64,000 bases of DNA from an uncultured Actinomycetota bacterium (GTDB taxonomy: Bacteria; Actinomycetota; Actinomycetes; Propionibacteriales; Nocardioidaceae): contig CAVUCQ010000001.1 of NCBI GenBank assembly GCA_963740115.1, positions 245,098 to 309,097 of the forward strand, read 5' to 3'. A program made the position numbers. Position 1 is the first letter of the stretch. The number at the start of each line of letters is the position of its first letter. Positions 18,701 through 24,700 of this stretch are shown one piece after another.

Positions 18701-21700
18701 AGGCGGCCGAGGAGGCGATGGAGGCCGTCCGGGCCGACGACCTCGCCGACGCGGCCCAACGCACCGTCGACGGGCTCAGGCGGCGTGAGCAGGGCGCCCT
18801 CGGGGACCTGGAGGAGATGGTCCTCGCGGAGCGGCCGCCCGAGGAGATCCAGGCCCAGGCCACCAAGGTGGCGGCCATCCACCGCGACCTCGTCGAGGCC
18901 CGCATCGACGCCCGCGAGGCCGACGCGGTCGCCGACCGGGAGCAGGCGCAGGCCAGCCGGGCGGCCCGCGACCTCCGGGACGCCGAGAACGGCACGCCGC
19001 GGCTGGTGGCCGAGCAGACCACCTCGCAGCCTCCCACCGACCTCCGCGACCGGCTCGGCTAGGACGTCGGCCGCGCGGCGCCCGTACGACGCTCGCGCTC
19101 CGCGACGGCGTACGGGTCGGTGCGCGAGTCGTAGGACCAGAAGTCGCGCAGCACGACGGCGGTGACGATCACCCCGCCCACGCACGCCGCGCCCCCGCTG
19201 ACGATCGCACCCCTGACGGTCCACGCATCGGCCACGAAGCCGGCCCGCGTCTCCCCGATCATCGGGCCGACCGAGTAGGACAGCATCTCGATGCCGGCCA
19301 GCCGCCCCCGCATGGTGTCGGGGATCGTCTGGTTCCACACCGTGGCACGGAAGACGCCGGACACCATGTCGGCGGCCCCGGCCAGCGCCAGGAAGGCACA
19401 GGCCAGCCCGAAGGACGGCATCAGCCCGGCCATCGCGATGAACGCGCCGTAGAGGCAGGCCGCGACCACGATCGCCCGGCCGTGGTGGTGCACGCGGCCC
19501 ACCCAGCCGCTCAGCGCGGTGGCGACGATCGCACCCACGGTCTCGGCGGAGTAGAGGAGGCCGAGCAGCTCGGGTCGTTCGAAGACCTCGTGCGCCAGGG
19601 CGGGGAAGAGCACCACCGGCATGGCGAGCATCATCGCCGCGATGTCGACGACGTAGGTGCCGAGCAGGTCGCGCCGCCCCACGGCGTACGTCAGTCCCTC
19701 CTGGATGCCGCGCAGGCTGGGCGGGGTCGTCTCGCCGTCGTGGGGGTAGGGCCGCATCGCCGCGAAGAGGAGCGTGGCGACGGCGTAGCCGGCCATGCCG
19801 ACGACGAAGCACCACCCGACGTCGGCGTAGGCGATGAGGAGGCCGCCGAAGAGGGGCCCGAGCAGCACGCCGAGCTGCATGGCGAAGCTGCTGAGGGCGC
19901 TCGCCGCGGCGATCTGGTCGTGCCGCACGGTGCGCGGCTCGAGGGCCTCGCGCGAGGGGCGCTGCATCGAGCTGGCCGCGGCGTAGAGCGCGGCGAGCAC
20001 GAAGATCACCCACACCCGCGGCTCGTCGGAGAACGCGTTCCACGCGAACGCAGCCATCAGCACGACCTGCGCGCTCCCGGTGGTCACCAGCAACCGTCGG
20101 CGGTCGACGTGGTCGGCCAGCGCGCCGCCGTAGAGCCCGAAGACGATGAGCGGTCCGAGCTCGACGAGCCCGACGAGGCCGACCAGCAGGTTGGAGCCGG
20201 TGAGGTCGTAGATCGCGAACGGGACCGCGACGTAGGCGACCATGCTCCCGAGGTAGAACACGCTGCCGGCGGTGAAGAGCAGCCGGAAGTCGCGGGACTC
20301 CCGCAGCGGCGAGGCGTCCATGCGCATCGCGCGGAAGCGCTCGGTCCAGGTCACGAGAACTCAGTGTCCACCCGCCGGGAGCGAGCGGCACGTGGTTTTC
20401 AGGAGTCCGTCACGACCTCGAAGCGGGGCACCGGGTTGTCCCGCAGAGCACCGCACGTGAGCCGCTGGCCGGGGTCGAGAACCCGCCGTACGTCGACGGT
20501 GACGCTGCGCCCGCCGGCCTCGAGGGTGACCGAGGTCAGGTCGCCGACCGTGCGGGCCGCGGTCGGACGCACGTCGTCCACCCGGGACAGCCCGAGCCGA
20601 CGCCGCACCCCGATCTCGGCAGCCTGGACGGGCATCGACAGGTCCGAGCGACCCCGGAGGTGGTCCAGCGCCACCCGCCCGTCCGCTGCGGCGTCGGCGA
20701 CGTGGAGCGCCGTGTCCTCGTCGACGCGGCCGTAGTAGAGGCCGCGCGGCAGGACCAGCACGTTGCCCGCGAACCGGTCGCCCCCGATGTGCGAGCACTC
20801 CCACACGGCCTCGGCGTGCCGGCTCGCGGCGAGCGCCAGGGCGACCGGCCTGCCGCGCTCGGCACAGCAGGCGTCGTGCCGGCCGTGCGTGCACACCGCG
20901 ACGATCGGGCCCTCCTGTGGCTCCAGGCCCGGTGATCGACCGGAGCCCAGGGCCTGGAGGTCGATCCCGCGGACGTCGTCGACGTCGTCGAGCCAGGCGG
21001 TCTCGAGCCAGGAGTCGGCGCCGGCCGCGTAGGACGCGAAGACACGCAGCCGACCACCTTCGGCCGTCCGGCCGGGGCGCCGGACCAGCAGGACCCGTAC
21101 GCCCGCGCGGCGGCCGTCGCGCGCCAGGTGGTCGCCCAGGCCGTCGGGCAGTCGTGCGTCGCGCAGCGCGTCGACGCCCCACGAGCCGGCGTGCTCGACG
21201 AGGAGGAAGCTGCGCACGGTCGAGGCGGTGCCCGCGAGGTCGTCCTCCCGGGCATCGCTGGCGGCGGCGCACCGGAACGGTGTCATCGCACGACCTCGAG
21301 CAGGCCCTCCCGCACCAGCCGTCGGCACAGCACGAGCGCGCTCGCGGGATCGAGGGGCAGGTCGGCCGGGGTCAGCTCGGCCCGGGCTGCGACCACGTCG
21401 ACCGCAGCCCGGATGCGGGCGGGGACCCGGAGCACGCGGTCGCCGATCAGCACCCGCACGACGTCGTCGCCCGGCGTCGCCACGACCTCGCACGGGTGGC
21501 CGGGCCTCCGCCGCAGCAGGGTGTCGTCGGCCAGTCCTCGGGCCAGCGCCTCGCGGTCGAGCAGCGCGCCGGCCATCCGCGGCGGGCGCTCGCTGAGGAA
21601 TCGGACGACCTGGTCCTGTGCCGCCGCGGGGGCGTCGAGGCGTCGTACGGCATCCGCCACGGCGGCCAGGTGCTCACCGAGCCCATCGGCCAACCGATCG

Positions 21701-24700
21701 GGGTCGCTGAGGTAGCCGGCCGGGACGTGGTCGTCGGCGACGTCCTCGAGCGCCGCGCCCACGAGCCTCGAGACGAGCTGTCGCCAGGTGATCTGGTTGA
21801 TGCCGATGGTGAGGTGCAGCGACACGGCCTCCTGCGCTCGGGCAGCGTGGGGCGTGCCGGTCGGCAGGTAGGCGACGACGCCGGGCTCGAGGAGGAGCTC
21901 GCCGGGGCCGCCCTCGCCGTGGATCTCCCACAGCTTGGTGCCGTGGGTCTGCAGCACGAAGACGTCGTGGGAGTCGGAGTGCACCGCGAAGCCCCGCGCG
22001 CCGGGCGGGGTCAGGTAGGCGTTGGCCTGGCACGGGTGGCCCAGCTCGAGCTCGAGGCCGGCGACCAGCTCCGCGACGGGGCTCCAGTAGCGCTGGAGGC
22101 CCTGCAGCACGATGGTGGCGCCCTCGTCGTGCAGGCGCATCAGCTTCACCGGGTCGACCAGCCCGGTCAGCGGCTTGCCGGCCAGGCTGCCGCCGCGGGT
22201 GAAGGTCGACTCCGGCAGCACCGAGCCGTCGCGCGCGACGCGCACGGCGGGCGTACGGATGGCGGTCTCGGTCAGCAGGTGGTCGACGTCGGCGAGCGAG
22301 AGGATGCTCGCTCCCAGCCCGGGATCGGTGCGGTGGACGTGGACCGACGACGCCCAGACCTTCTCCACGAAGGTCTGGGCGTCACCGGTGAGTCGGTCGA
22401 GTGCGCTCAGAGCGCGGACCCGTCCGTGCCGTCGGCGTCGGTGGAGCCACCGTCGGTGCCGTCGGCGTCGCTGGAGTCACCGTCCGACGCGTCGGTCGAG
22501 TCCCCGTCGCTGGAGTCGGCGTCGGTGCCGTCGGCGTCGGTGCCCGGACCGGCGGCGACGCCCGTGGGGTCGGTGCCCTCGGTGCTCATCTCGTCGTCGT
22601 TCAGCGGGTTGTCAGGAGTCGTCGTCATGGATCCTCCTACTCAGGGCCCGGCGGGAAGTCCGTCGGCGCACCGCCAGTCTGGTTCCGGCGTCACCCAACG
22701 TCCCACACCCCTCGGGGCGGGGGAAGGCCTCGTCCGTGAGCGCCGTGGCCGCTCAGTGGGTGCTGATCGTGTAGCGCGTCGTGCCCTTGACCTTGGCGTC
22801 GCCGCAGGACTGCCTCCGCGACGGCCCGGCCGTCGCCACGACCTCGTCGTCGGGACCGCCGCCCGCCAGCACGTGGAGCTCCCGCACCTGCTCGACGCCG
22901 GGGCGACCGGCCCGACCCCGCGCCCACTCGACCGGGACCTCGCCGCGCTCGACGGCCCGGCACGCGGCGAGGGCGGTGGAGGTGTCCAGGCGACCGAGCG
23001 TGAGCCCGCTGGGCAGCGCGAGCAGGGTGCCGGAGAAGCGGTGCCCACCCAGGTGCGTCGTCTCCCACGTGCCCTCCGGCCACTCCCGGCTGAGCAGCCC
23101 GGCGATCGGTCGTCCCAGCTCGGCACAGCACCGGTCGCGCTTGCCGTTGGTGCAGACCAGCCACAGCGGGCCGTCGTACGCCGGCATGCCGGGGAGGTCG
23201 ACGTCGAGGAGGTCCTCGGGTCGGTCGAGCACCGTGCCGCGCACGTCGTAGCCGTCCTCGGTGGCGCGCGCCAGGAAGACCCGCGTGCCCGGCCCGGCGC
23301 TGCCGTCGTACCGGCGCAGCAGGAAGACCTTGAGGTCGAGGCGGCCCAGGTGCTCGCGGACGACCTCGGGCAGCCGGTTGTCGGTGACCGCGTCGCGGCC
23401 CCACGGCCCCGGGCTCTCCACCAGGAGGATCTCGGCGTCCTCCGGCGCGGTGCCGGCGATGGGTTCGTCGTCCTCGACGCTGGCGTAGGAGCACCGGAAG
23501 TCAGCGAGGTCAGGCATGGGGAGCAGTCTGACCGACGGGTGTCAACGACTGGTCATCAGGTTTATTCACGTCAGCGGGCCGCGAGGCGCGCGCCGGCGAC
23601 GCCAGCGCGATAGTCCGCTGCGATTGACCGCCTGATGGGCCCGTGCGACCGGCTTTTCGCAGCGGACTACACATGACCACGAGCAGGCCGATGGGAACGA
23701 CGCCGGGACGGTGCTCACAGCAGGCCGCGGCGCCGCGCGACCGCGGCCGCCTCGGTGCGGGAGGCGGCGTCGAGCTTGGCCAGGATGTTGGAGACGTGCA
23801 CCGAGACGGTCTTGGTGCTGATGAAGAGCTGCTTGCCGATCTCGCCGTTGCTGCGCCCTTCCGCCACGAGCGCGAGGATCTCCGCCTCGCGGGGGGTCAG
23901 CACGGCCGCCTCGGCCGCTGTCGCCGGAGCCGGGGCGGACCCGGCGGCGATGAGCTCGGCGAGCATGGCGGTGGAGCGCATGGCGTGCGCCGCCTCCCGG
24001 GCGAGGTCGCCGACCTCGCGGGCACCCTGGGCGTCGCCCGCCGCGCGGAGCACGCCCGCGAGGCGGACGCGGGCCTGCGCCACCTCGGGCACGCTGCCGT
24101 AGGCGACCGCCGCCTCCTCGGCCGCCCGCCACGCGGCGACCAGCTCGTCGCTGGTCGGGGGGTCGACCTGGGCGAGCCAGCGCCAGCGGAGGTGCTCGGC
24201 GCTGCGGCGCGCGACCCACATGCGGTACTCGGGACCGTGGCTGCCGTCGTAGGGGGCGTAGAAGTCGATGACCCGACCGCCGTCGGACATCATCCGGTCG
24301 ACGTCGGCGCGGGCTGCGTCCCGCTCGTCGGCGGACTGGTGCGCCGCCGCGTTGGCGAAGGCGCCCACCACCAGGGTGGCGAGGCGCAGCCGGGCCTGGA
24401 ACCAGTCGTGCCACAGCGGCACGACGGTGGCGACCACCTCGTCGTAGACCGCGACGGCGCCGGCCGCGTCGCCACGGGCGGCCGCACGCATCAGCTCGGC
24501 GCTGGCGGCCGAGATCGCGGTCAGGCCGTCGGTGCTCCAGTAGTCACGGAGCCGGTCGAGCGCCTTGCCGTGCTCGTCGCCGCGGATGCCGATGCAGATG
24601 AGCATCTGGTGCGCGAAGTAGAGCCACTCGAAGACCATCGGCGGGTTCTGGCCGCTGACGTCGAGCAGCTCCCACGCCTCGTCGAGCCGCCCCTGGTGGG

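Follow-up and report, generated by a model that had tools for sequence, protein, structure and literature searches.

A conserved acidic repeat peptide encoded with a ROX-type JmjC oxygenase and a Suc_Fer-like protein in Nocardioides and other Actinomycetota: a candidate peptide-modification module

The peptide, oxygenase and Suc_Fer-like genes

A 64,000-nt stretch of high-GC actinobacterial DNA from an uncultured member of the Nocardioidaceae (assembly GCA_963740115.1, contig CAVUCQ010000001.1, positions 245,098 to 309,097; hereafter the window, in whose coordinates positions are given) carried on its minus strand a small gene for an acidic repeat peptide, followed by genes for a JmjC oxygenase and a Suc_Fer-like protein. 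The closest homologues of the window proteins all came from Nocardioides. The peptide gene (22407..22628 (-), 73 aa) was recognised from its sequence, composition and conservation. The gene for the oxygenase, a ribosomal oxygenase (ROX)-type JmjC protein (PF08007, 3.5e-18), spanned 21283..22368 (-) when read from a GTG and 21283..22410 (-) when read from a CTG, and that for the Suc_Fer-like protein (SF2; Apd1-type, thioredoxin-like ferredoxin; PF06999, 6.4e-19) spanned 20399..21286 (-). A first-pass annotation had placed the three in a row of five minus-strand open reading frames (ORFs) with short or overlapping junctions, interpreted as a peptide-modification and export operon; all five ORFs were present at the coordinates claimed.

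The peptide was Asp-rich (D 26%, T 16%, G 16%, S 12%, A 11%), had an isoelectric point (pI) of 4.05 and contained no Lys, Arg, His or Cys, as had been described. A conserved N-terminus, MTTTPDNPLNDDEMSTE, was followed by D-x-D-G-T-type pentads and decads, repeats that corresponded to the periodicity of the gene at 15 nt and 30 nt. A protein search returned 86 small homologues (48-108 aa) sharing MTTTPDEPLxDD(E/D)(M/I)xTE and then DADGTDG/DSTD repeats in variable number, and L9, D11, T16, D33 and D36 were invariant in an alignment of 28 peptide homologues. No signal peptide was found on the acidic peptide, and NCBIfam and PADLOC contained no family for the peptide, the JmjC protein or the ferredoxin-like proteins.

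An AGGAGG ribosome-binding site (RBS) was located 4 nt ahead of the ATG (22638-22633), and a purine-rich RBS was kept in nearly all orthologous loci while nearby sequence drifted. Across 12 codons of the N-terminal motif in 68 loci, mean entropies were 0.30, 0.31 and 0.78 for codon positions 1, 2 and 3, a third-position variability 2.6 times that of the first two positions, and change in the Pro and Leu codons was nearly confined to position 3. Since the AGGAGG was conserved and third codon positions varied most, the small ORF is, as judged from these substitution patterns, a genuine and conserved protein-coding gene under protein-level selection. Spurious ORFs are frequent in high-GC genomes, and plus-strand shadow ORFs (898 aa at 20917-23613 (+), and others) overlay the true minus-strand genes as a high-GC artefact; a chance origin of the small ORF was nevertheless effectively refuted by the third-position pattern, the conserved AGGAGG and the fact that the peptide kept its sequence and its class of length across more than 150 contexts, and we consider it extremely improbable.

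The oxygenase had been described as a JmjC/cupin-4 protein with an HxD...H motif, which agreed with the PF08007 match and with the invariance of H130, D132 and H174 among orthologues, where K145 was invariant as well. The iron triad H130/D132/H174 aligned with that of NO66, and K145 aligned with the Lys of the NO66 'GRKLW' segment, which we take to be K355, the 2-oxoglutarate (2OG)-binding residue. The closest solved relatives by sequence were NO66 (E = 1.6e-16), then MINA53, then YcfD, identity to ROX enzymes being about 22%. An AlphaFold2 model (pLDDT 87) found NO66 as its best Foldseek match (2e-22, about 435 columns, TM-score about 0.6), followed by MINA53, YcfD and YxbC, and this predicted structure fitted, in its overall arrangement, the full-length three-domain ROX layout of JmjC barrel, helical dimerisation domain and winged-helix-like C-terminal domain. 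Because the triad and the 2OG-binding Lys were invariant, and because both the relatives and the predicted fold were of ROX type, the JmjC protein very probably acts as an Fe(II)/2OG oxygenase.

The C-terminal domain was predicted as beta-beta-beta(-beta)-alpha-alpha. This predicted beta-beta-beta-alpha-alpha order was the sole pointer to a RiPP recognition element (RRE) or PqqD-like domain (RiPP, a peptide made by the ribosome and modified after translation), an assignment that was rejected after residues 280-361 gave no match in PDB or Pfam. Two JmjC homologues (P0039 and P0044) were named 'cupin .../sulfur carrier protein ThiS' by JGI, a name suggesting that a domain of ThiS-like or beta-grasp-like type at the C-terminus is recognised by some annotation pipeline. 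At the other end, conservation reached past the annotated GTG (22368): the sequence (L/V)SALD(R/L)L(T/S)GDAQTF began 42 nt ahead of it, and on this basis the annotated start is probably 14 codons too short, the protein measuring 361 aa when read from the GTG and 375 aa when read from the CTG at 22410.

SF2 scored 69.2 bits against PF06999 (gathering cutoff 34.9) and differed from Apd1 in one ligand position: the C-x8-C motif was present, while the H-x3-H motif was replaced by HIGGD, with Asp for the second His. HxGGD was found in 77 of 80 SF2 orthologues, and the predicted ligand set was C132...C140/C141, H166 and D170, within an invariant set of C6, C132, C140, C141, C278, H166 and D170. The JmjC-coupled Suc_Fer subfamily displayed extra invariant cysteines in an N-terminal 'FRC' and a C-terminal 'LTC'. 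An AlphaFold2 model of SF2 (pLDDT 85) predicted additional N- and C-terminal domains. A PDB sequence search with SF2 returned no match, and no literature on bacterial members of the Suc_Fer-like ('sucrase ferredoxin') family was found.

Recurrence and coupling of the three genes

A scan with one genome per species returned 450 loci encoding a relative of the JmjC protein, and the best 80 were inspected; those carrying a genus name were Nocardioides and the rest were metagenome-assembled genomes of Actinomycetota or Propionibacteriales. About 76 of the 80 loci had an acidic repeat ORF 38-50 nt ahead of JmjC (the exceptions being a short contig, frame problems and the ORF selection rule), and SF2 was found next to JmjC, downstream, in 77 of 78 testable loci. 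In the reverse direction, a DNA pattern of the peptide N-terminal motif matched against metagenome contigs retrieved 113 acidic small ORFs. Of these, 72 were genuine and had 400 nt or more of downstream sequence, and JmjC followed in 71 of the 72. The linkage between small ORF and oxygenase on which the first-pass proposal depended was thus conserved in related genomes in both directions.

The junctions were conserved along with gene order. Among 81 loci, the peptide stop and the JmjC start overlapped as NTGA in 62 (CTGA 49, GTGA 13) and formed TGAGTG in 7, giving 69 loci in total. In the window the junction was CTGA at 22410-22407 (-), with the JmjC CTG over the peptide stop, an overlap that implies termination-reinitiation at a non-canonical start. 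The start of SF2 sat on the JmjC stop as ATGA, an overlap already noted at first pass. Given these stop-start junctions, the peptide, JmjC and SF2 genes appear to be coupled in translation as a single unit. Chance would fall far short of producing this arrangement, since the trio recurred at the loci of 80 Nocardioides species and in independent lineages from metagenomes.

More distant relatives were sampled from 487 JmjC proteins (representatives at 50% identity, E <= 1e-30), for which 12 contexts were inspected. Four lineages outside Nocardioides, with JmjC identities of 43-49%, retained the trio (loci L082/83, L084/85, L086/87 and L094), their peptides being of the same DADGTD kind, e.g., MSIMPDAPLSDDDITVPGHNDPTMPHRDADGTDGVDGDSTE... 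A Suc_Fer partner accompanied 4 of 4 DADGTD cores and 0 of 8 other sampled contexts. These distant partners (L082 7226-8119, L084 7164-8066, L086 6372-7292 and L094 1347-2303) carried HxGGD in three of the four lineages and HxGGC in the fourth. The gene directly after the trio encoded a thioredoxin in L086 (7364-7795) and a hemerythrin-like protein in L094 (2466-2942), neighbours that may extend a redox, iron or O2 theme.

Other contexts lacked the ferredoxin-like gene or had a RiPP-like setting. At L081 (5773-5940) and L090 (1959-2135), an acidic peptide with DDDRDAGGHG...DTGDEPTE repeats and an N-terminal (L/I)xDDDI(T/Q) was encoded next to JmjC in divergent orientation, without a Suc_Fer gene. 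At L092 (1220-6335; 44% identity) and L093 (1-6317; 49%), the JmjC homologue adjoined YcaO and TfuA, i.e., thioamide-type RiPP machinery, as well as methyltransferases; L093 also contained a divergent 75-aa acidic ORF. The JmjC gene of L089 was found with an MvdD-like ATP-grasp protein, a P450 and methyltransferases, and a 68-aa ORF with MPLSDDQILTV was present at L095. At L091 (219-5517), a JmjC protein of 34% identity was flanked by five small ORFs, with a PRMT-like methyltransferase nearby. Three of these ORFs had N-termini of the SLSERDITV-, SLTEQDIHV- and SLHDQDILV-type and Cys-rich bodies ending in GTGDW(D/DQ), two of them with GG after the leader-like part, and from these features L091 looks like an undescribed multi-precursor RiPP cluster.

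Since several of the sampled contexts shared LxDDDIT-like N-termini, a similar N-terminal motif appears to accompany this JmjC clade across unrelated peptide bodies. With respect to a division into leader and core, the LxDD(D/E)(M/I)T motif thus travelled with the clade over differing bodies, and was missing in about 8 of the 80 species. The placement of the peptide gene directly before JmjC corresponded to the short precursor gene beside a modifying enzyme that characterises RiPP loci.

Variable neighbours and the upstream region

The core unit is made of three genes (peptide, JmjC and SF2), not five. The major facilitator superfamily (MFS) transporter, the other Suc_Fer-like protein (SF1) and the LAL-type (large ATP-binding regulator of the LuxR family) protein are lineage-variable additions outside it. 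The first-pass five-gene modification and export operon did not hold: MFS was adjacent in 13 of 74 loci and SF1 in 22 of 76, and the peptide had its own promoter-like region. The co-occurrence expected across actinobacterial genomes was recovered for the peptide, JmjC and one Suc_Fer protein, and not for MFS and SF1. From LAL to MFS, successive junctions in the window measured 197, 124, 38 (or an overlap when JmjC is read from CTG), -4 and 44 nt.

The MFS gene (19059..20354 (-), Pfam MFS_3) was present within 8 kb of the trio in 19 of 74 loci. Its product had been called EntS-like, which suited the MFS_3 match and the general resemblance; at 240.2 bits against an NCBIfam EntS cutoff of 324, the level of an EntS equivalog was missed. 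An EntS-like MFS protein as exporter of the intact 7-kDa polyanion appears implausible.

SF1 (22753..23517 (-); PF06999, 1.3e-15, 58.4 bits) was a canonical Suc_Fer-like protein, encoded directly upstream of the peptide gene in the 22 loci noted above. Both ligand motifs of Apd1, C-x8-C and H-x3-H, were found in it as CTNGKRDRCC and HLGGH. The ferredoxin motif of the first-pass annotation (C-x8-C with HxGGH) was therefore correct for SF1 and failed for SF2, which has HIGGD. In about 10 species (L002-type loci), a block of about 6.6 kb separated SF1 from the peptide gene (L002 1100-7700), encoding two ABC permeases (sugar), a solute-binding protein and a GDE-like glycoside hydrolase.

The LAL-type regulator reported alongside was present at 23715..26690 (-) (991 aa), with AAA_16 (2.2e-25), TPR matches and a LuxR/GerE helix-turn-helix (GerE 1.1e-20), the domain architecture of LAL proteins. 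It was a same-strand upstream neighbour, at most 1.5 kb away, in 37 of 76 loci, and was encoded anywhere in the flank in 51 of 76. Gene clusters 2 and 4 recurred upstream of LAL in many loci, so that LAL has a conserved catabolic block on one side and the trio on the other. Past LAL, the gene at 27046-28308 (-) appeared to encode an amidohydrolase of imidazolonepropionase (HutI) type, as judged from its sequence.

A promoter-like region of the peptide gene, whose function we infer, was delineated at 22633..22711 (-) by conservation across loci of the window's clade. It was composed of a G-rich box, GGGGTGTGGGAC (22711-22700), situated about 20 nt ahead of a -10-like hexamer CAGACT (22681-22676), and of a degenerate palindrome (about 22664-22648) between the -10 and the RBS, which read GACGGACCGTCCGTC in relatives. 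The box, the hexamer and the RBS were kept across about 38 loci of the clade, with variable flanks, and a second Nocardioides clade displayed GTGTAC-N18-CATGAT in place of the box and -10. Because this region lies downstream of SF1 and directly ahead of the peptide gene, SF1 falls outside the core unit. By their pattern of conservation, the box and the palindrome may be an activator site (for LAL, perhaps) and an operator, and LAL is a possible activator of the peptide promoter. Consensus scans found no sigma-70 sites or terminators, and Rfam gave nothing credible.

A candidate peptide-modification module and its alternatives

We propose that the acidic peptide serves the JmjC oxygenase as a dedicated substrate in a three-gene module, with SF2 as redox partner, a reading held at about even confidence on genomic context and on analogy with JmjC enzymes of RiPP pathways. 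The peptide would act as a RiPP-like precursor or small modified protein, and the JmjC enzyme would use Fe(II), 2OG and O2 to hydroxylate its side chains. The most plausible target would be the C-beta of Asp in the D-x-D-G-T-D repeats, the most attractive residue given the peptide composition; alternatively, a residue of the N-terminal LxDD(D/E)(M/I)T motif could be modified. SF2 would supply electrons, either keeping or returning the oxygenase iron to Fe(II) or serving a second redox step, and the outcome would be a polyanionic peptide that may bind metal. Beyond the genes themselves, we infer the substrate relationship, the modified residue, the role of the Fe-S protein, metal binding and export, and the exporter and metallophore parts of the model are speculation.

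Such a module is the best reading because the peptide gene is real, its coupled linkage to the enzyme is obligatory, relatives of the enzyme occur in RiPP contexts and other JmjC enzymes act on precursor peptides. JmjC enzymes known to modify RiPP precursors include CzlI, which converts Phe to Tyr in curacozole (PMC11575548), and BipG, an ornithine hydroxylase of biphenomycin biosynthesis (PMC12707348). A 2025 survey also reported bacterial PF08007 homologues in RiPP-like contexts (PMC12710340). Hydroxylation of Asp C-beta in peptides and proteins by Fe(II)/2OG enzymes is established chemistry (PMC12186529, PMC4543633), and within a RiPP it is catalysed by SmaO, which takes Asp to Hya and on to aminomalonate (PMC12186529).

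Several observations weigh against this proposal. The case is contextual, being built on linkage, coupling, catalytic residues and the RiPP-type contexts of relatives. In the ROX enzymes characterised so far, the residue hydroxylated is a His or Arg in a ribosomal protein, and the peptide contains neither. To our knowledge, 2OG oxygenases are not normally ferredoxin-dependent, and a Foldseek search of PDB with SF2 returned nothing below E = 0.1, so that its role was not clarified. Neither enzyme was basic (pI 5.8 for JmjC and 6.1 for SF2); with an acidic JmjC protein there was no obvious charge match with the polyanionic peptide, and charge complementarity was set aside as an argument. Neither a leader peptidase nor a conserved exporter accompanied the trio among the neighbourhoods compared, and a search of the whole window at up to 3 mismatches gave no IdeR-type iron box, Zur and other boxes not being searched. 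Finally, about 8 of 80 species had lost the LxDDEM motif of the peptide. In these loci (L043, L051, L061, L065, L070, L074, L077 and L080) the peptide ORF, located just upstream of position 8001 (of 5719/5915 in L077/L080), retained MTTTP and the repeats while PLxDDEM was gone. JmjC and SF2 were intact in the same species and the JmjC C-terminal domain showed no relaxation (C-terminal to catalytic identity ratio of 0.92 vs 0.85); the motif is therefore not strictly required.

In the main rival, which we consider possible but unlikely, the peptide would be a disordered acidic partner (a regulator, pseudo-substrate, inhibitor or Fe(II)/Ca(II) buffer) of an oxygenase acting on another protein, e.g., a ribosomal one. 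The closest solved JmjC relatives are indeed ribosomal-protein hydroxylases, whose target residues the peptide lacks, translational coupling of this kind is typical of protein complexes in fixed stoichiometry, and the free variation in repeat number is as expected if the bulk property of a polyanion matters. Against it, JmjC relatives adjoin obvious RiPP precursors and core RiPP enzymes, and a similar N-terminal motif accompanies the enzyme across very different peptide bodies, as in enzyme-substrate recognition. A looser relation, in which the genes are merely co-regulated neighbours and the peptide functions independently (Ca2+ binding, mineral interaction, stress or hydration), would suit the likeness of DxDG-rich repeats to generic cation-binding sequences, and the link seen between peptide and oxygenase is a genomic one. 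Two-way linkage close to 100%, which held across lineages with JmjC identity as low as 43%, and overlapping stop and start codons nevertheless make it improbable.

Two more specific versions of the module were also weighed. The exported metal-chelating peptide of the first-pass proposal, a ribosomal metallophore with the MFS protein as exporter, both ferredoxin-like proteins as redox partners and LAL as pathway regulator, draws on five co-directional genes with short gaps, on the EntS-like character of the MFS protein and its presence next to or near the trio in part of the loci (13 and 19 of 74), on the metal chelation expected of poly-Asp repeats, and on the hemerythrin of L094 and thioredoxin of L086 as iron- or O2-related neighbours. 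We regard it as quite doubtful, MFS and SF1 being absent from most loci and SF1 being separable from the peptide gene by unrelated sugar-transport genes. The MFS type is moreover an unlikely carrier for a 7-kDa polyanion, no protease was conserved, the peptide bore no signal peptide, and the window contained neither an IdeR box nor a linked uptake system; no conserved uptake genes were found next to the trio in the neighbourhoods compared. A broader formulation, unlikely in our view, is that poly-(beta-hydroxy-aspartate) repeat peptides form a new class, made by a ROX-type JmjC enzyme with a Cys2-His-Asp partner and acting as Fe/Ca chelator or metallophore of soil actinobacteria, with LxDDDIT defining a broader, so far unrecognised family of JmjC-dependent RiPPs.

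The proposed substrate module shares features with several known systems. The oxygenase has in common with ROX enzymes (NO66/RIOX1, MINA53/RIOX2 and E. coli YcfD/RoxA) the PF08007 domain, the HxD...H triad, the 2OG-binding Lys and the predicted full-length architecture. Known ROX enzymes are encoded by stand-alone genes, whereas here the gene is coupled to an acidic peptide free of Lys, Arg and His and to an Fe-S protein, and the coupling to a peptide without His and Arg suggests a substrate unlike that of known ROX enzymes. CzlI and BipG, likened here by class and context and not by sequence, are also Fe(II)/2OG JmjC enzymes acting on an adjacently encoded precursor. They perform accessory steps in multi-enzyme pathways (with YcaO/cyclodehydratase, multinuclear non-haem iron-dependent oxidative (MNIO) or radical S-adenosylmethionine enzymes), whereas the present JmjC protein is the sole obvious modifying enzyme, with an acidic repeat core and an obligatory Suc_Fer-like partner. 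SmaO, FIH and AspH perform the same type of Asp/Asn beta-hydroxylation but belong to other enzyme subfamilies and recognise other substrate motifs. The thioamitide His beta-hydroxylases (TsaJ/ThoJ) were considered as the closest characterised relatives and set aside, TsaJ being a PF05721 protein and not a JmjC protein.

The concept of a ribosomal, enzymatically oxidised metal-binding peptide is shared with methanobactins and with bufferins, the latter cited as reference 73 of PMC12710340. In those two systems the enzymes are of the MNIO/DUF692 type, the ligands derive from Cys, and signal peptides or dedicated transport are involved; the present locus had none of these. As for Apd1/Aim32 [2Fe-2S] ferredoxins, both window proteins scored above the PF06999 gathering cutoff; SF1 shared C-x8-C and H-x3-H with them, while the SF2 subfamily differed by an Asp (rarely Cys) for the second His and by the extra terminal domains.

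The pairing of a precursor with a JmjC tailoring oxygenase is already known; what is unusual is the acidic repeat character of the proposed substrate, together with an obligate Apd1-like partner of predicted Cys2-His-Asp ligation. In line with the first-pass statement that no system of this composition had been described, none was found in family libraries or in the literature searched, where neither the gene combination nor Asp-rich JmjC precursors were described. If the peptide is indeed the substrate, a bacterial ROX-type JmjC enzyme would gain a dedicated non-ribosomal peptide substrate, and the uncharacterised bacterial Suc_Fer-like (Apd1-type) proteins would gain their first functional context, as obligate partners of a 2OG oxygenase. 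The shared N-terminal motif would provide a handle for mining related JmjC-dependent peptides, and the trio itself would represent a minimal two-enzyme RiPP-like family, widespread in Nocardioides and recurring in other Actinomycetota.

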